Source: Pseudomonadota bacterium
GTDB taxonomy: Bacteria; Myxococcota; JACRCW01; JAFGSX01
DNA: 64,000 nucleotides
Assembly (NCBI GenBank): GCA_043821645.1
Contig: JBDRCO010000043.1
Span: 32,001 to 96,000, forward strand
Direction: 5' to 3'
Part shown: in pieces, positions 41,357 to 50,018 of the stretch
How positions within the stretch are numbered: the stretch's first letter is position 1
Layout: each line of letters begins with the position of its first letter
Position numbers and translations under genes: made by a program
The notes under the pieces: generated by a model
The model's input: only the letters and a program-made list of their open reading frames with translations
Databases searched by the model: none
What the model was told of the DNA's origin: nothing

Positions 41357-42220
41357 ATGCTGCGCATCATCCTCGGATACGTCGGCACCCTCAGTGGCCT
41401 CGTGCTGACCTTCTTCTGGGGCACCCTGGCCGCGCTGGGTTATCCCCTCGGCGGTCAGCGCTTTGCCATCTGGTGCGCCCACATGTGGGGGCGCACGGTG
41501 CTGCGCGCGGGCAACGTGCTGGTGGCCGTGCGCGGCGGCGATCAGCTCGACCTCAGCCGGCCGCACCTGTACGTGTCCAACCACCAGAGCGGCCTGGACA
41601 TCCTGGTGCTGTGCGGGCACCTGCCGCAGCGCGTGGTCTTCGTCGCCAAGAAGGAGCTGGCTCGCGTGCCCTTCGTGGGCTGGGGCCTCAAGCTCGGGGG
41701 CCACGTGCTCATCGACCGCGCGGACCGCAGCCAGTCCTATTCCGCCCTCGAGGCCGCCGGGGCCGAGGTGCGCGCCGGCAAGAGCGTGATCATCTTCCCC
41801 GAGGGCACGCGCAGTCCGCCCCGCGAGCTGTGGCCGTTCAAGCGCGGCGCCATGATGCTGGCGCGGGCCGCGAGGGTGCCCATCGTGCCTGTCGGCATCG
41901 TGGGCTCCGCCGAGCGCATGAAGGCGCGGCAGATTTACACCACCCCGGGTCTGGTGGGTGTGCGCATCGGTCAGCCCATCCTGCCCGAGGACTTTGACGA
42001 CGACGATCACGTGCTGATCGAGCGCGTGCGCACCGAGATCGCCAGGCTGGCCGGGTCCAGCGCCGCCAAGGTGTTGCCGGCGAGGGGGCCGCACAGCAGG
42101 CGCGCGGTGAAGAAGGACCAGGGCGCGCCGGATGAGGGAGGGTCAGAGCAGCCGACGGTGGACAAGACAGGCGACGCCACGGAGCTCAGCGCCGAGGAGG
42201 GATCAACGCCCGTTCCCTAG
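41357..42220 (+). CDS. plsC: 1-acyl-sn-glycerol-3-phosphate acyltransferase
   Basis: SNHQSGLD, FVAKKEL, IDR, FPEGTRS, PIVPV. Confidence 0.92.
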   Translation: MLRIILGYVGTLSGLVLTFFWGTLAALGYPLGGQRFAIWCAHMWGRTVLRAGNVLVAVRGGDQLDLSRPHLYVSNHQSGLDILVLCGHLPQRVVFVAKKELARVPFVGWGLKLGGHVLIDRADRSQSYSALEAAGAEVRAGKSVIIFPEGTRSPPRELWPFKRGAMMLARAARVPIVPVGIVGSAERMKARQIYTTPGLVGVRIGQPILPEDFDDDDHVLIERVRTEIARLAGSSAAKVLPARGPHSRRAVKKDQGAPDEGGSEQPTVDKTGDATELSAEEGSTPVP

Positions 42221-45200
42221 CCGCGCCAGACCGTGGCTGGTCAACACCAGCAGTTCGCCGCGGTGCTCGATCACAGCGTTGACGTCGCGCACCGGCAGGC
42301 TCAGGTGCTCGACCTGCCCCGCCGCATCGACCCGCGCCGCGGGCATGCCCAGGCCCCCCACCCACAGCGTGCCGTCGACGATGGACAGACCCTGCGGCGG
42401 CACCCATTGCGCCTCGAGCCCCGCGATGGGCTCGACCCGAGCTCCGTCATAGCGATGGACGCCGCTGTCATAGGTGCCGATGAACAGGCTGCCGTCGTGA
42501 GCGCGCAGGCTGGTGACCCAGTTCACGCCAAAACCCTGGGCCGCGGTGATCGCGTCGAGGCCCGCGTCCTCGACCACGAACAACCCCTCCTTGGTGCCGG
42601 CATAAAGCTGTCCCTCGACCTCGGCCACGGCCATGAAACTTCGTGAGCCCAGGGCGCTCTGCGCATCCAGGCGTTGCAGAACATCATCGGCCTTCAGCAG
42701 GTAGAGCCCGCGCGCACTCGCCACCGCAAGGCCCTGCGCGGTCGACACCAGATCGTGCACCGCCACCTCGTCCAGCACGGTGCGCACCACCCGATCCTGG
42801 CGCGTGTCCACCGCCAGCAGTCCGCCCTCGCTACCCAGCCACAGCAGCCCGGCGTGCGAGGCCAGCACGTTGAGCCGCCGCTGCATGGGGTTCAGGCCGG
42901 GGGCGACACCCGTCAGCTCCTGCCCGTCGACGCGGAACAGACCCGAGTCGAGACCGGCCACGTACAGGGCGCCGTCGTGGTGCAGGGCGTGGCTCAGGTC
43001 CGGAGCTCCCCGGCGCACGTTGTCGAGGGCGCTGTCCACCGCGTTGAAGCGGCCGCGGTCATCGCGCACGAAGCGCCCGAAGCCACTGTGCACCTCGAGG
43101 CCGTGGGCCGTGCTCCACAGGCCCATCACATGCTTGTGGGCAAAGCGCGTGCGCACCGCGCGGCGTCCCCGCACCTGCCACAGCCCGGTGTAGGCCGTGC
43201 CCACGAACAGCGTGTCGTCGTGCCGCGCCAGGGCCGTGACAAAGCGTGAACCGACCCTGAGCGCGCTCCGCCGCAGTCGCTGGCCCCGCAGCTCGTACAG
43301 ACCCTGGCCCAGCACCGCCACCAGGACCCGACCATTGCCCAGAGGCTCGAGGCCGGTGACCGCGTGGTGCAGGTCCACACCGGCGATGCGGCGGGCTGTG
43401 CAGCGTGCGTCGCGGCAGCTCAGGCGCAACAGATCGCCGCCCTCGGTGCCGAGCAGGATCTCGTCGCGGCCACTGGCGAGCTGCGAACTGAGCTCGAGCG
43501 ATCGCAGGTTCAGGCCATGGTTCGAGAAGCGCCGTGGGCCGCGATCGGTGGTCAGCACCAGCTCGTCTCCGTCGAGGCTCAGCCCGCTCACCGAGTGCAT
43601 GCGCGCGGGGACGGCCAGCACTTTCCCGGTCGGCTCCGGGAGGGACTGCTGCACCGCCTGCACCTCGAGCTCGTCGCCCTGGCGGCGGCACGCAAAGGCA
43701 CTGCGGTTGCCCGCGCGGTCGCGCACATACACCGTGAAGGCCGCGGGCAGATCGGCGATGGCCACCAGCCAGCTCTGGCCCACGGGCGACAAGGTCAGGG
43801 CCTTTTTGTCGTCACCGTGGATGATCACCGAAGCCACCGCCGGGGTCTCGTCGCCGGTGACCACGCTGAGCAGGCCCTGCTCGGGCTCGAACAGCAGCGA
43901 AGCCTGCGGACCGCGCTCGTCGATCTGGTAAAAGGCGTGGGCCAGCTCGACCCGGCCGTCGTCGAAGTGCTTGAACACCTCGATGCGGTAGAAGGTGGCG
44001 CTCCAGCCGCGCGGCACCAGGAAGCGATCGGTGAAAGTGTCGAGCTCGGGGTCGTGCACCAGACGCCGCTTCTCACCAAAGGGATACCAGGCCACCACCT
44101 CGACCAGACCGGGTTCGCCGTGCACGGTGAGCACCGGGTCACCGGGCAGGGTGGCGGCCACGCTCAGCTCGGGGTCCACCGCATGCAGCGAGGTGAAGGC
44201 GGTGGGGATGCGCTCGCGCAGGCTGACCTGGATGATGCGCTGCTTGAGCGCGGCGTCGGGTTCGGCGCGGTACGTCTGCATCCAGCTCGCGAGCAGGCGC
44301 CCGTACACGCTGCGCTGCACCGACGCGGCAGCGTCGCTTCCAGGCTCGGGCGTGGTGATGGCGATGTGGCGCTCGATCTCGTGACCCTCGATGTCGAGCC
44401 GCACCGTGAGGGGCCCCAGCTCGTCGAGGAGCGCGTGCAGGCGCAGCAGTCCGCCCTCGGCCACCTGCAGCGCCGGGCTTCCGATCAGGCGCAGGTCGCG
44501 ACCGGCCTGGCGGATCCCCTGCACCAGCAGCACGGGCAGGGTGATCTGATCGGCGAGCTGCAAAAGCTTCGCCGGTGCGTCCCCTTCGGTCTGGAACAGC
44601 GCGGCGTTCGCCGGTACCTGGTCGGCAAAGAACGCGGCCTCGTGGGCATCCGCGAGCAGGATGGTGCGCAGCTCCGAGCGCGCCAGCTCGGCCAGGTCGG
44701 GCAGCTGCGGGTCGGTGACCAGGGCGCAGCGAACCTCGCTCAGACCACAGCCCAGGCGCTGTGCCGCGCGCTCCAGATCGCTGGCCGAGGTCGCGACCCA
44801 GGGCTGGTCTTGCAGGGCCCGCACCAGGGTATCGGGGTTCTCGCCGTCCAGGTTCTGCAGCAGGCGTTCGCCCACCACGTGCAGCTCCACCGGCACCGGC
44901 GACTGGTCCAGCACCCGCTCGATCAGAGTGCGCAGGCTGGCGCCGCGGCGGCGCAGCGAGGGGGAACCGTCGATGAGCAGGTGCAGCGATGTGTAGGGTG
45001 CCCGCCATTCGCCGCCGTCATACAGGGCGACCTGGATCTGCACGCCGTGGCGTGCGCCTTCCTCGGCCTCACCCTCGATCAGGGACACCGCCGCGGCGCG
45101 GGTCATCAGGGGCGGCATCTCCTCGTTCCACCACAGGTCCAGGGGCGTGCTGGCACTGAGCGCCAGGCTCACCCGCTGCGGCGAGCGCGCCAGCACCTGG

Positions 45201-45796
45201 GGCTTGTGACCCTCGACCCCGAAGCCAGCCAGGCGCGCCGCGGTCTCGATCTCGCACAGCACCGTCGACGGAGTGGCCGCTTGCCCCAGAAAGCTGTCGA
45301 CGGGAAGCGCCAGGTGAAAGCGCCCCATTTCCATCTCCACCGGAATGCTCAGCTCGACCTGGATGCGCTTTTGCTCCCCGGCGCGCAGCGGGAACACCGA
45401 GAAGCTCTGGATGTTGCGCTCCGCGGTGAGCAAGGCCGTGCTGCGACCCGCGGCCGCGGCAGCGTGGTGAGCGGCCTTGGCCTCGTCCTTCTCCTTGAGC
45501 TCGGCGCGCACCAGGCGGCCGTCGGAGTAGAAGCCAAAACCCGTGACCTGGGCGCCCTCGGGCAGCAGCAGCTGGTAGTCGGCCTGCCCAAGCTCCTCGC
45601 CGTCGTTGGCAAAGATCTGGGTCAGCTCGACGCGAGCCTCGTTGCCTGAGATGCGAGCGCGAATGGCCTGGCTCACCAGAGGCAACTGGCGCGCGGTGGT
45701 GAAGAGACCCGCAGGCCTGTCCTCCTGGGCAAGGGCCAGAGCGCAGATCACAAGGGCGACCACGACGACGACGGGGCGCGCGGTGTGGCGGTTCAT
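42203..45796 (-). CDS. VIT domain / vWA-like / beta-propeller secreted protein
   Basis: Signal peptide; VIT (ARVELTQIFAN..YQLLLPEGA.V..F), LIDGSPS MIDAS-like, PGDP..PFGE..RFLVP module, propeller repeats (LFVGT..GL). Confidence 0.75.
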   Translation of the reverse strand: MNRHTARPVVVVVALVICALALAQEDRPAGLFTTARQLPLVSQAIRARISGNEARVELTQIFANDGEELGQADYQLLLPEGAQVTGFGFYSDGRLVRAELKEKDEAKAAHHAAAAAGRSTALLTAERNIQSFSVFPLRAGEQKRIQVELSIPVEMEMGRFHLALPVDSFLGQAATPSTVLCEIETAARLAGFGVEGHKPQVLARSPQRVSLALSASTPLDLWWNEEMPPLMTRAAAVSLIEGEAEEGARHGVQIQVALYDGGEWRAPYTSLHLLIDGSPSLRRRGASLRTLIERVLDQSPVPVELHVVGERLLQNLDGENPDTLVRALQDQPWVATSASDLERAAQRLGCGLSEVRCALVTDPQLPDLAELARSELRTILLADAHEAAFFADQVPANAALFQTEGDAPAKLLQLADQITLPVLLVQGIRQAGRDLRLIGSPALQVAEGGLLRLHALLDELGPLTVRLDIEGHEIERHIAITTPEPGSDAAASVQRSVYGRLLASWMQTYRAEPDAALKQRIIQVSLRERIPTAFTSLHAVDPELSVAATLPGDPVLTVHGEPGLVEVVAWYPFGEKRRLVHDPELDTFTDRFLVPRGWSATFYRIEVFKHFDDGRVELAHAFYQIDERGPQASLLFEPEQGLLSVVTGDETPAVASVIIHGDDKKALTLSPVGQSWLVAIADLPAAFTVYVRDRAGNRSAFACRRQGDELEVQAVQQSLPEPTGKVLAVPARMHSVSGLSLDGDELVLTTDRGPRRFSNHGLNLRSLELSSQLASGRDEILLGTEGGDLLRLSCRDARCTARRIAGVDLHHAVTGLEPLGNGRVLVAVLGQGLYELRGQRLRRSALRVGSRFVTALARHDDTLFVGTAYTGLWQVRGRRAVRTRFAHKHVMGLWSTAHGLEVHSGFGRFVRDDRGRFNAVDSALDNVRRGAPDLSHALHHDGALYVAGLDSGLFRVDGQELTGVAPGLNPMQRRLNVLASHAGLLWLGSEGGLLAVDTRQDRVVRTVLDEVAVHDLVSTAQGLAVASARGLYLLKADDVLQRLDAQSALGSRSFMAVAEVEGQLYAGTKEGLFVVEDAGLDAITAAQGFGVNWVTSLRAHDGSLFIGTYDSGVHRYDGARVEPIAGLEAQWVPPQGLSIVDGTLWVGGLGMPAARVDAAGQVEHLSLPVRDVNAVIEHRGELLVLTSHGLARLGNGR

Positions 45797-46785
45797 GATG
45801 CACCTCCGAACTCGACGCGAATGGGAGTGGTGATGGGCAGGCAGCGATCGAGCAGGTACTCGGTGGCGCCGCCCACGCCCTGGGTCAGGTGCAGGCGAAG
45901 CTGCAGGTCGTCGTCGCTGGCCTCGAACACGGGAGCGCCGGCCAGGCCCGTACCCTCGGGCAGCACCAGGCTCACGGTGCAGGGCGCGCCGGTGGCCTTG
46001 CTGTGCGCAGCGTCGAGCCCGCCGTGATAGACCAGCACACCCGGAGCGTTGAGCGTGTCACGCCTGTCCACCTCGCGCGCCGTCACCGCGGTGCGCGGTG
46101 TTGGCTCGGGCTCGCGCGCCAGGGTGCGCATCATGGCCTCGGCCACGCCGCTGGTCTGGGTGCTGACGCGACCTATGTGTTGGTAGCTGCCCTCGCTCTG
46201 GTACGCGATGCGCCTGAAGAAGGCCACGCCCTCGCTGGGCAACGAACGGCAGCCGATGGCGTGGATGGCCACCTGCCTGTCGTGCGCCAGCTGCACGATC
46301 TGCTCGGGGGTCGGGTGCTGGTGGTAGTCGAGGTGCGGCGGCGCGTCGCCGATCAGGAAGATCTGGCGCTCGGTCCCCACACTGCGATCCCAGTTCATGC
46401 CGTTCAGGGCCACGTGCAGGCCAGACAGCACGTCCTCGGGGCCATCGCCGCCGCCGTCGGCCACCAGAGCGGCCAGGAAGCGCTGGCTCTGCTCCACATC
46501 CTCGGTCAGGGGGGCCTGCTTGGTGACGTACTGATCGCCCTGATCGCGGTAGGCCACGACACCCAGCCGCACCCGTTCCTGGGGACGCGAGGCGCGCAGG
46601 GCCTGACTGATCTGGACCACCCGCTCCTTGACCTCGCGCAGCTCGCCCGACATCGAGCCCGTGGTGTCGAGCACGAACACCACATCGAGGTCGGCGCGCG
46701 CTGGCCTCGCACTCGCCAGCACCAGCACCGCGCCCAGCATCGCCAGGCCCGCCCTCACCGCCGCTTGCCTTGCCCCTGCCTGCAT
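45793..46785 (-). CDS. Secreted vWA domain protein
   Basis: LDVVFVLDTTGSM, VAYRD, GGGDGPEDV, LIGDAPPH; AGGAGG RBS. Confidence 0.88.
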   Translation of the reverse strand: MQAGARQAAVRAGLAMLGAVLVLASARPARADLDVVFVLDTTGSMSGELREVKERVVQISQALRASRPQERVRLGVVAYRDQGDQYVTKQAPLTEDVEQSQRFLAALVADGGGDGPEDVLSGLHVALNGMNWDRSVGTERQIFLIGDAPPHLDYHQHPTPEQIVQLAHDRQVAIHAIGCRSLPSEGVAFFRRIAYQSEGSYQHIGRVSTQTSGVAEAMMRTLAREPEPTPRTAVTAREVDRRDTLNAPGVLVYHGGLDAAHSKATGAPCTVSLVLPEGTGLAGAPVFEASDDDLQLRLHLTQGVGGATEYLLDRCLPITTPIRVEFGGAS

Positions 46786-46846: not shown

Positions 46847-46963
46847 GCCACGCGGCCGCGAATATACGTTGAATGTATTGATGAAATCGCCGTTCCGGCG
46901 GACCCGGGTGTCGGCGTCAGAACACGATAAATGGCTGCGTGATGCTCTTCGTAGATCAAAACC

Positions 46964-47001
46964 AAGCGTTCACGGCGACCGCCGTGGCAGACGCCTTATC
47001 A
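46964..47001 (-). other. SECIS-like hairpin 2 (after terminal UGA)
   Basis: UGA UAA GGC GUC UGC CAC GGC GGU C: stem CACGGC/GCCGUG, loop GGUC at 22-25, lower stem AGGCGU/ACGCUU. Confidence 0.6.
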
Positions 47002-47337
47002 GGAACCGCCCGGCGGGCGCACCGCCGCTCCACCCAGGGCCTGCTGCATGCCCTCCTTGCCCATGACCTGCTCCAGCAGCTGCAGCAGCTTCTTCAGGAG
47101 TTCCTGCAAGCCGTCCTCGCCGCCGCCCTGTGCACCCTGCGCGCCTCCGGCTCCCTGGCTTCCTTGAGCGCTACCTGCGCTCGCGGGAGAGCCTCAGCCA
47201 CCGCTCGCTTTCTTGGCGCTGAGCTGCTCTAGGATGTCCTTCACCTTCTTGACCATCTGCTCGGGTGCCATCTGCGACGGCTTGTGCTTGATGGCCCGCC
47301 GCGCAGCTCCTGCCCTTCCTCCCGCTCCGACTTTCAT
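46996..47337 (-). CDS. Candidate selenoprotein, 113 aa, Sec48 and Sec113
   Basis: GGAGGT RBS (alt ATG 47361 with GGAGG). Frame continues through TGA 47194-47196 with coding-like codons to TGA TAA; SECIS-like hairpin after each UGA. Confidence 0.7.
47157..47196 (-). other. SECIS-like hairpin 1 (after internal UGA)
   Basis: UGA GGC UCU CCC GCG AGC GCA GGU A: stem GAGCGC/GCGCUC, loop AGGUA with G23/U24, lower stems UCC/GGA and GGCU/AGCC. Confidence 0.7.
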
Positions 47338-47411
47338 CCCGCACCTCCCGGGCGCAGCCATCGCGCCCTCCGCCTTCGAAGGATATCGCGCACACACACC
47401 TTGAGGTTGCT

Positions 47412-48156: not shown

Positions 48157-48435
48157 ATGAAAGCCAAGTGTGCGATCCTGGGCCTGGTGCTTGCGCTGGG
48201 CTGCGCGCCGCGCCCCGACATCCCGACCCAGGACCTAGGCAAGGACTGCCACAGCGACAGCGACTGCGCCCAGGGCCAGAAGTGCACCTCGTACGCGCAT
48301 CCGAGCTGCGACAACCAGCAGTGTCAGAGCTGCGAGATCGCCTGCGACGCAGACAGCGACTGTCCCGAGGGCTTGCATTGCAACCTGCCACCCGTGTTGC
48401 CGGATTCGGTGGTGAACACCTGCATGCAGGATTGA
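48157..48435 (+). CDS. Small Cys-rich lipoprotein
   Basis: Lipobox LALGC; C.SDSDC..G..C repeated twice. Confidence 0.8.
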   Translation: MKAKCAILGLVLALGCAPRPDIPTQDLGKDCHSDSDCAQGQKCTSYAHPSCDNQQCQSCEIACDADSDCPEGLHCNLPPVLPDSVVNTCMQD

Positions 48436-48518
48436 AAAGGCAAGGCGCCGCGACGCCGCGCGAGGGTTCGCGCCTGCGTTTGGTGAATCATTCAATGACG
48501 CATGATGCTGGAGGAAAA

Positions 48519-50018
48519 ATGACTCGAAGCGAGAACATGGGTGGACTTGGGGGATTCTTCACACGCATCGCCGTCGGCTTGTGGCTGATCGGCGTGCTGG
48601 CGGCCTGCTCCGACATGAGCATGGGCGGCAGCTACCTGGGAGCGACTCCGGGCGGCGCCCAGGACATGAGCCAGGCGCGCGAGATCATCGCGCAGGGAGG
48701 GGTGCCTGGCCCCCAGCAATTCACCGCCGAAGGCCTTTTCAGCGAGCACGACCTGACCCTGGCCAACCAGCCCACCTGCGCACAGGTGCTGTGCCTGGGC
48801 AGCGCGGCCGGCCTCGAGGTCGGGCTCGACGACAACCAGCGCGACCTGTTCGTGCAGATAGGCATGTCCTCCAGCATTCGCGCCGATGCCTTCGAGCGCT
48901 TGCCGCTCAACCTGGGCATCGTCGTCGATACCTCGGGCTCCATGAGCAGCGTGCTACCGGAGCTCAGGCAGGCCCTGCACGCCATGGTCGACGTGCTGCG
49001 GCCCGACGACCGTGTGGCCCTGGTGGTGTTCGAGGCGACGGCGCGCGTGATCCAGGCCTCGACCCTGGGCACCGACGCGGCCGTGCTCCACGCCGCCGTG
49101 GACAGGCTGCAGACCGGCGGCTCGACCAACATGGAAGCCGGCATGCGCCTGGGCTATGCCCAGATCGACGACCACGTCGATGCCGAGCACCTGTCGCGGC
49201 TGATGGTCTTCACCGATGCGCAGACCAACACCGGCGTCACCGACGTCGGCAGCTTCGGCGCCATGACCCAGGCAGCTGCCGCGCGCGGCATCGGTTTCAC
49301 CTTCTTCGGCTTTGGCCAGAACTTCTCGAATGAATTCGTCGACCAGATCGCGCACCTGCGCGGCGGCAACTACCGCTTCGTGCGCGCCGAGGACGTGAAG
49401 CCCATCTTCGAGGACGAGTTCGACTACCTGGTCACGCCCATCGCCTACGACCTGCGCGTGGCCCTGACCGCGACCAGCGGCGTGCAGCGCCGCGCCATCT
49501 ACGGCGTGCCCCAGGTCGACAGCCACGTCGACGGCGAGCTGTTCGACGTCAGCACGGTGTTCCTGAGCAAGCGCAAGGGCGGCATCGTGCTGCGCTTCGA
49601 CGGTCGCGACCTCGAGGCCCTGCGCGACGGTGATCAGCTCAAGCTGGGCGAGGCCGTGATCACATACGACACCGTCGACGGTGTGCCCGTGGAGCAGCGC
49701 TTGGCCGTGACCATGCCGCTGATCGGCAGCGTGGAGCCCGACGCCAGCCACTACCCGGACGTGCACATCCAGCGCACCCTCGCCGTCACCGACCAGTACC
49801 TGGCCATGCAACGGGTGTGCTCGGACTACTGGGGTGAGGGCGCGGATGAGTGGTCCCAAGTACGCGCCACCGACTTCGACCTGGCCGATGCCACCGCTCG
49901 ACTGGACGCCGCCATCGCCAAGGTGCAGGCCTCTCACGCCGTGCTCGACGACCCCAACCTGCAGCGCGAGATCGATCTGCTGACCAAGCTCAAGCAGAAC
50001 GTCGCTGCCGGCGAATGA
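48519..50018 (+). CDS. vWA (YfbK-like) lipoprotein
   Basis: GGAGG RBS; lipobox LAAC; LNLGIVVDTSGSM, GGSTNMEAG, FTDAQTN. Confidence 0.85.
   Translation: MTRSENMGGLGGFFTRIAVGLWLIGVLAACSDMSMGGSYLGATPGGAQDMSQAREIIAQGGVPGPQQFTAEGLFSEHDLTLANQPTCAQVLCLGSAAGLEVGLDDNQRDLFVQIGMSSSIRADAFERLPLNLGIVVDTSGSMSSVLPELRQALHAMVDVLRPDDRVALVVFEATARVIQASTLGTDAAVLHAAVDRLQTGGSTNMEAGMRLGYAQIDDHVDAEHLSRLMVFTDAQTNTGVTDVGSFGAMTQAAAARGIGFTFFGFGQNFSNEFVDQIAHLRGGNYRFVRAEDVKPIFEDEFDYLVTPIAYDLRVALTATSGVQRRAIYGVPQVDSHVDGELFDVSTVFLSKRKGGIVLRFDGRDLEALRDGDQLKLGEAVITYDTVDGVPVEQRLAVTMPLIGSVEPDASHYPDVHIQRTLAVTDQYLAMQRVCSDYWGEGADEWSQVRATDFDLADATARLDAAIAKVQASHAVLDDPNLQREIDLLTKLKQNVAAGE

Follow-up and report, generated by a model that had tools for sequence, protein, structure and literature searches.

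A terminal UGA followed by a SECIS-like hairpin as a candidate C-terminal selenocysteine codon in an orphan two-UGA reading frame

An open reading frame (ORF) on the minus strand of the 64,000-nt stretch of DNA analysed here (the window) runs through one in-frame TGA and reaches a second TGA that is directly followed by TAA. The locus raises the question whether the terminal UGA is an ordinary stop or is decoded as selenocysteine (Sec). Bacterial selenoproteins with Sec as the last residue are missed by gene callers and homology searches, and the known families with terminal Sec are few (DUF466/KCU-star, SaoC and the UXX-star group). On balance we hold it likely, though unproven, that the terminal UGA encodes a C-terminal Sec, decoded through a candidate SECIS in the 3′UTR. 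The features of the locus are listed in Table 1.

Table 1. Features of the two-UGA locus. Nucleotides (nt) of each hairpin are counted from the U of its UGA as nt 1.
Feature	Position in window	Strand	Remarks
Shine-Dalgarno-like GGGAGG	47344..47349	minus	about 6-7 nt upstream of ATG 47337 (read from the sequence)
Readthrough ORF	47337..46996	minus	ATG 47337, U48, U113, TAA stop; 113 codons and stop (translated with TGA as U)
N-terminal coding island MAPEQMVKKVKDILEQLSAKKASGG	47197..47271	minus	codon log-odds +6.9, 25 codons
First in-frame TGA (UGA1), candidate Sec48	47196-47194	minus	
Hairpin 1 upper stem-loop GAGCGC-AGGUA-GCGCUC	47166..47182	minus	nt 15-31 past UGA1
Gly/Ala/Ser/Gln-rich linker	47110..47193	minus	28 codons
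Possible own start of the C-part, TTG	47109	minus	GAGG upstream
C-terminal coding island LQELLKKLLQLLEQVMGKEGMQQALGGAAVRPPGGS	47002..47109	minus	codon log-odds +9.4, 36 codons
Terminal TGA (UGA2), candidate Sec113	47001-46999	minus	
TAA, proposed true stop	46998-46996	minus	
Whole hairpin 2, including lower stem AGGCGU/ACGCUU	46964..46996	minus	MFE -16.3 kcal/mol
Hairpin 2 upper stem-loop CACGGC-GGUC-GCCGUG, candidate 3′UTR SECIS	46971..46986	minus	nt 16-31
UUUU run, terminator-like	46958..46961	minus	2 nt past the lower stem

Re-reading of the minus strand gave ...GGC GGT TCC TGA TAA as the 3′ end of the ORF, with the same last codons, TCC TGA TAA, as in the original prediction. Counted from the ATG at 47337, the terminal UGA is codon 113. 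We compared contigs from three public metagenome runs (X1, X2 and X3) of two studies. The first TGA is present in X1 and X2, and the terminal TGA in X1 and X3. Since both are found in independent metagenome contigs, they are not assembly errors. In run X1 the second stop is polymorphic (46996 T>C, TAA to TAG, depth 4.3 vs 4.7). This change preserves the stop, and it also preserves the A6-U38 pair of hairpin 2 as G-U.

In hairpin 2, the lower stem pairs A6-U11 with A33-U38 and the upper stem pairs C16-C21 with G26-G31. The loop is G22 G23 U24 C25, and G39 G40 and U41-U44 come after the lower stem. In hairpin 1, nt 15-20 pair with nt 26-31 around the loop AGGUA, and a longer lower helix lies beneath. 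The stem, loop, lower stem and GGUUUU of hairpin 2 had all been described correctly beforehand, and the GGU proposed at nt 22-24 of both hairpins was confirmed by sequence and fold. A repeat-element origin was rejected, as each hairpin is unique in the genome. A known RNA family was likewise rejected, the search giving only a chance lncRNA match (E 0.78). Hairpin 2 and the Prx1 SECIS of this genome have 12 nt in common.

The published bSECIS model, as given in the available text of its source (PMC13188914), has a loop of 3-9 nt, an upper stem of 4-16 bp, a spacing of 16-37 nt and an MFE of -7.5 kcal/mol or lower. It also has a G as the first or second loop nucleotide, usually with G or U next to it on the 3′ side (PMC13188914, available text). 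Hairpin 2 has a 4-nt loop, GGUC, on a 6-bp upper stem, a spacing of 18 nt (nt 4-21) and an MFE of -16.3 kcal/mol. The model is a loose one: with a 6-bp stem, 9-11% of the TGAs in the genome pass (10.9% in a random set of 40,000 TGAs, 9.2% among 1,310 that are true stops). A UGA-anchored covariance model of 13 SECIS, which is dominated by family-specific spacer sequence, gave hairpin 2 a local match of 11.8 bits (E 0.71, rank 5 of 43 in the window), which is not significant. A synonymous-recoding MFE test of hairpin 1 (p 0.36) was discarded, as it has no power and places only one of five true SECIS at p<0.05.

We searched the genome (7.07 Mb, 140 contigs) for Sec use. It has a tRNA-Sec (78.6 bits, anticodon TCA) together with selA, selB and selD, the last with an in-frame TGA. 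The Sec machinery is complete, as a bacterial SECIS demands of its host. A codon log-odds screen and pattern scans found at least nine other Sec sites in eight proteins; a screen on GC3 alone was too noisy, and codon log-odds were used in its place. The eight proteins are SelD, two peroxiredoxins with the U inside their AhpC/TSA Pfam domain, a DUF1573/OS_HP2 Sec protein, a HesB-like and a UshA-like PCGU protein (both with significant NCBIfam scores below the curated cut-offs), redoxin_TUGYCR (214 bits, cut-off 100) and a UXX-star family 1 protein with two Sec (107.6 bits, cut-off 72). At most of these Sec sites the hairpin has its 5′ arm at nt 14-16 and a G-rich loop at nt 21-27. No Sec-containing formate dehydrogenase was found in the genome.

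Two further observations were made during this search. The HesB-like selenoprotein (G000:C51:147038-147361, minus) terminates ..GEPGCG-TGA, and no SECIS-like hairpin was seen after that TGA. IscA-type proteins carry a Cys-Gly-Cys motif where this protein has GCG-TGA. A 747-codon Gly-rich ORF (G000:C98:15117-17357, minus) has a single TGA in frame (..GDCT-U-TDSDF..), behind which lies a C[AGGCT]G hairpin. This ORF matches no family and may be a Sec protein or a broken gene.

To place hairpin 2 among the SECIS of its lineage, we compared it with sites where Sec lies near the C-terminus. The UXX-star family 1 protein of this genome (G000:C37:243880-244104, plus) terminates GYGGS-U-GV-stop, and its second SECIS, GAUCCGC-GGUC-GCGGAUC, lies in the 3′UTR. 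Of 20 phylum loci read for this family (L069-L088), 15 have the ending GG[ST]-U-xx-stop. Their loop is GGUC in 10 of the 15 by script and in one more by eye (L070), and it starts at nt 20-26. A membrane-anchored protein of the same genome, P0012 (about 130 aa; G000:C37:48776-49276, minus), terminates ..CGKVG-U-SH-stop-stop; no model of Pfam or NCBIfam matches it. Of 200 other phylum genomes, 24 were found to carry a P0012 homologue, and the one in-frame TGA is kept in 23 of these 24. All 12 loci of this family that we read (L057-L068) have the CGxxG-U-xx-stop ending and a 3′UTR hairpin whose stems covary; 11 of them have a GGUC loop, and the loop start lies at nt 21-24. Judged by sequence, the P0012 family looks like an undescribed selenoprotein family of the UXX-star type.

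As read from these loci, the predicted SECIS for near-C-terminal Sec in this lineage is a C-GGUC-G tetraloop on a G+C stem of 6-8 bp, placed just after the stop. Hairpin 2 matches this form, with C-GGUC-G, a 6-bp G+C stem and a loop start at nt 22. Unlike hairpin 2, both validated 3′UTR SECIS of this genome lack a U-tract after the hairpin.

We then calculated how often such hairpins arise by chance. The stability of hairpin 2 is unexceptional (z -1.38): among 200 shuffles, 19 reach an equally stable fold. A strict pattern with a 6-bp stem and GGT at nt 22-24 follows 101 of 157,514 TGAs, or 6.4 per 10,000; other triplets are followed by it at 2.1-9.9 per 10,000, and TGA is not enriched. A narrow geometry was found after 1.8% of random TGAs, 1.8% of true-stop TGAs and at 53 of 3,029 coding-like ORF ends. 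In local shuffles and recodings this geometry appeared at 0.6-2.7% for hairpin 1, and at 1.8% for hairpin 2 (local shuffles). A GGTC tetraloop on at least 6 bp with its loop start at nt 20-26 follows 41 of 157,514 TGAs.

Genome-wide there are 344 GGTC-tetraloop hairpins with a stem of at least 6 bp, four of which sit 16-33 nt after a TGA ending a coding-like ORF. These four are Prx1, U2 of the UXX-star protein, hairpin 2 and one unexplained small ORF, and two of them are validated Sec sites. The unexplained match (G000:C1:57706-57915, minus) reads ..KGTLP-U-RGSCGICG.., has its hairpin 31 nt after the TGA and matches no family. With all frames counted, GGTC hairpins show no TGA excess at the right offset. 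About 0.8 GGUC-hairpin matches are expected by chance among the 3,029 ORF ends, so the GGUC motif and an ORF end alone are not significant. A pentaloop C[NG(G/U)NN]G at coding-like ORF ends occurs six times genome-wide: at U1 of the UXX-star protein, HesB-like, TUGYCR, UGA1 of the studied ORF and two others, three of the six being validated Sec sites. A wider G[GU]NN tetraloop model gave seven sites, and in four of these a stop lies 0-3 codons after the TGA.

A TGA with TAA or TAG as the very next codon ends 9 of 2,328 coding-like ORFs; two of these are TGA-TAA, the studied ORF included. When the immediate second stop is added to the GGUC hairpin, the expectation drops below 0.01 per genome, and it is lower still with the hairpin of UGA1, an estimate that is partly post hoc and assumes independence. 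The shared geometry of the two hairpins had been called hard to explain by chance. Taken singly each hairpin is ordinary. What is rare is their joint occurrence in one ORF, where two in-frame TGAs in succession each bear a hairpin typical of the lineage and a TAA stands right behind the second TGA.

Whether the ORF is coding was assessed from codon usage and variation. In related populations, all three SNPs within the ORF are silent third-position changes, the TAA to TAG change being one of them. Codon log-odds of both islands favour the sense frame over all five other frames. The first 20 codons of the ORF score as non-coding. The 28 codons past UGA1 are open in the same frame; this linker has a log-odds of -4.6, a value undercut by only about 2% of true coding windows. 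Its third codon position is A or T in 10 of the 28 codons, vs about 10% genome-wide. A triplet periodicity in frame is nonetheless present in the linker (chi2 16.0, p 0.0115). AlphaFold, run on the single sequence, placed helices at residues 25-44 and 74-101 and left the linker disordered; its confidence is low (pLDDT 62), and the model is uninformative on Sec.

The predicted protein (P0001) was compared with known families. There is no Cys or redox motif near either U of the ORF. A Pfam search gave no family match, and NCBIfam gave a chance-level match alone (E 0.076) to an unrelated family. The UXX-star, KCU-star, SaoC and other NCBIfam selenoprotein HMMs do not match the ORF protein. The selenobacteriocin precursor family TIGR04081 has an SGUG motif and two Sec according to the available text of PMC13188914. 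Its HMM (27 positions) gave no match on P0001 and, searched genome-wide, none at the locus, and no radical SAM gene neighbours the ORF. Internal duplication was rejected, as BLASTP gives no alignment between N-part and C-part. Genes with vWA and VIT domains lie on both sides of the ORF (window 42203-46785, minus; 48157-50018, plus), along with a Cys-rich putative lipoprotein. No selenium-related neighbour gene was found at the locus.

A representative search of 1.84 billion proteins returned four matches. One is the N-part itself (P0003, annotated by NCBI as a 47-aa protein that terminates at TGA1), and the others are a strain variant, a repeat protein and P0005. P0005 is a stand-alone 39-aa protein with 61% identity to the C-part over 28 aa (E 8.6e-4 in 1.84 billion proteins) and is the sole homologue found for the C-terminal part. 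It begins where the coding signal of the C-part begins. Its C-terminus falls one residue short of the position of the terminal UGA, so the stop there may be ordinary. No protein spanning both halves of the ORF was found among the 1.84 billion, and no homologue with Cys or Sec at either U position was found in any search made, these 1.84 billion proteins included. Separate searches for homologous proteins gave nothing, including no longer or Cys-containing form, and locus scans of genomes and metagenomes found no homologous locus. Among 40 relatives and 400 phylum genomes there is no homologue, and the arrangement is not conserved in the 40 relatives.

Two matches concern the N-part. Residues 1-37/45 of the ORF (window 47224-47337, minus) recur unchanged in the metagenome proteins P0002 (68 aa) and P0006 (76 aa), which beyond ..KDILE carry an unrelated 31-aa tail without TGA. 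By sequence, P0002 and P0006 are best described as a strain-level structural variant with a predicted breakpoint near 47223. Residues 14-45 (window 47197-47300, minus) resemble the repeat unit A..KP.e.yP.eqi.ki..iL..l..ke of a 2,282-aa repeat protein, P0004. The match comprises 13 stretches (E 2e-16 summed), and the likeness is probably compositional.

If the terminal UGA is a Sec codon, the following course of events may be envisaged. A ribosome reaching this UGA would melt the lower stem of hairpin 2. The upper stem-loop CACGGC-GGUC-GCCGUG would then stand at the mRNA entrance and bind SelB-GTP-Sec-tRNA(Sec). Sec would be added as the last residue (..PPGGS-U-COOH), and UAA would terminate. 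UGA1, with its C[AGGUA]G hairpin at equal distance, would probably be decoded likewise. The predicted product is a 113-residue protein of helix, disordered linker and helix with Sec48 and Sec113. Hairpin 2 with its UUUU may additionally terminate the transcript. The original prediction had proposed Sec113, UAA as the true stop and a SECIS in the 3′UTR. The Sec machinery, the hairpin form of the lineage and the four ORF ends with GGUC hairpins support it in part; translation of the ORF, readthrough of UGA1, SelB binding and Sec insertion are predicted.

The main alternative is that both UGAs are ordinary stops. The locus would then hold a 47-aa N-part, a non-coding spacer and a 36-aa C-part starting from the TTG at 47109, ended by a tandem stop and a terminator that resembles a SECIS by chance and stands ahead of the promoter region of the vWA operon. 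The low log-odds (-4.6) of the linker and its 10 of 28 codons ending in A or T fit a spacer, and the stand-alone 39-aa P0005 starts with the coding signal of the C-part. The N-part is found elsewhere with another tail and no TGA (P0002, P0006), and the NCBI annotation closes it at TGA1 (P0003). Downstream, the hairpin is followed by UUUU, which makes a terminator also reasonable, and between hairpin 2 and the vWA gene lies a 170-nt stretch of lower GC. The covariance model is not significant, and the chance expectation of about 0.8 GGUC matches per genome also favours ordinary stops. The terminator role itself had been suggested earlier, and two scans for it disagree. A looser scan (stem of at least 6 bp, TTTT within 14 nt) finds a terminator-like site at 17 of 1,310 gene ends and calls the site of hairpin 2, but another terminator scan does not call it. 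Against two ordinary stops stands the fact that several coincidences are required jointly. The C-part must lie in the same frame with all 28 spacer codons open (roughly 0.2), TGA1 must by chance precede a hairpin of narrow geometry (0.6-2.7%), and TGA2 must precede one of the lineage SECIS form (41 of 157,514 TGAs) and be followed directly by TAA or TAG (9 of 2,328). Terminator-like sites are moreover rare (17 of 1,310), and the linker keeps its periodicity in frame (p 0.0115). We judge this explanation rather unlikely.

Two other explanations carry less weight. The region might be untranslated, with a frame left open by chance in intergenic DNA rich in G+C and with hairpins that have no function. 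High G+C does yield long chance ORFs here, such as a 97-codon antisense ORF at 46939..47232; the first 20 codons and the linker are non-coding by log-odds, and AlphaFold confidence is low (pLDDT 62). Yet the islands score +6.9 and +9.4 in the sense frame versus the five others, the three SNPs are all silent third-position changes, and P0005 is 61% identical over 28 aa (E 8.6e-4), and we find an untranslated region improbable. A shade less probable still is a regulatory leader, in which SelB binding or slow Sec decoding would set termination at hairpin 2 and tie expression of the vWA/VIT genes to the supply of selenium or Sec-tRNA. One hairpin would then serve as both SECIS and terminator, a selenium-responsive attenuator behind a two-UGA leader ORF and before the vWA/VIT operon. 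Decoding of Sec at the terminal UGA would be read out through SelB binding and the position of the ribosome on the leader. In E. coli, a SECIS-like element binds SelB and controls selAB expression. In favour of a leader, hairpin 2 unites a loop of SECIS form with a U-tract, only 5 nt behind the stop; the vWA gene follows on the same strand some 170 nt further downstream, and the ORF is an orphan of low-complexity content. However, the downstream vWA and VIT genes have no evident selenium link and the arrangement is not conserved in 40 relatives. The C-part is conserved as a protein in P0005, which suggests that the peptide itself matters. Were the attenuator real, it would be a new coupling of gene expression to selenium supply.

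Decoding of the terminal UGA as Sec, the reading we favour, would add an orphan protein of about 113 residues that carries two Sec but lacks a redox fold. A further consequence would be that the lineage-specific SECIS form (C-GGUC-G, nt 20-26) can find such genes where no Cys homologue exists. The same analysis revealed the conserved CGxxG-U-xx-stop family, which matches no Pfam or NCBIfam model. A C-terminal Sec with a UGA-stop ending and a downstream hairpin is in itself already known from the DUF466, SaoC and UXX-star families, as the available parts of their sources describe (PMC4607533, bioRxiv 10.1101/2022.07.06.499078, PMC13188914).

In the part of PMC4607533 available, DUF466/KCU-star of Campylobacterales is a small protein with Sec as its last residue, a UGA followed by a stop and a SECIS downstream of the coding region. 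These proteins terminate Lys-Cys-Sec and are aligned with an invariant C-terminal Cys in more than 1,000 species (PMC4607533, same part). The studied ORF has the same UGA-stop ending and downstream hairpin, but it has no neighbouring Cys and no Cys homologue was found for it. SaoC, which ends Cys-Sec-COOH, has a UGA-UAG double stop, a perfect 7-bp stem and a GGU loop from nt 21, and was accepted as a C-terminal Sec protein without alignment beyond the Sec (bioRxiv 10.1101/2022.07.06.499078, available portion). In 49 of 52 species an invariant Cys is aligned with the UGA of SaoC, whose gene lies in a conserved selenoprotein-rich operon (same portion of bioRxiv 10.1101/2022.07.06.499078). Double stop and GGU-loop hairpin are alike in SaoC and the studied ORF, whereas the Cys alignment and the selenoprotein operon are found only with SaoC.

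Compared with the Escherichia coli fdhF SECIS, hairpin 2 has a similar span (about nt 15-31), the same GGUC and the same G23/U24, but it lacks the bulged U and lies in the 3′UTR. The minimal fdhF SECIS is an upper stem-loop at about nt 15-31 with a GGUC loop, G23/U24 and a bulged U in the stem, and it lies within the coding sequence. Hairpin 2 also resembles a Rho-independent terminator, being an interrupted G+C-rich 12-bp hairpin followed by GGUUUUGAU at a gene end. Unlike in such a terminator, its U-tract is short (4 U) and offset by 2 nt, and its loop sequence and distance from the stop codon fit the SECIS form. The fdhF SECIS has a stem of 6-8 bp and a conserved loop G about 20 nt after the UGA, according to the available text of PMC4605307.

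The UXX-star family 1 protein has, like the studied ORF, two U, one internal and one C-terminal after GGS (GYGGS-U-GV-stop vs PPGGS-U-stop). In both, a pentaloop with G23 U24 forms the internal SECIS and a 3′UTR C-GGUC-G the terminal one, those of the studied ORF being candidates. The studied ORF differs in having no sequence homology to this family, no glutaredoxin fold and no UxxT motif. Its candidate Sec is the last residue vs the third from last in UXX-star family 1, and its loop starts at nt 22 vs nt 26. The P0012 family is unrelated and membrane-anchored, and 24 of the 200 other phylum genomes have it, whereas the studied ORF is an orphan. Its CGxxG-U-xx-stop members carry, like the studied ORF, a C-GGUC-G hairpin in the 3′UTR, and this family is the best template for hairpin 2.
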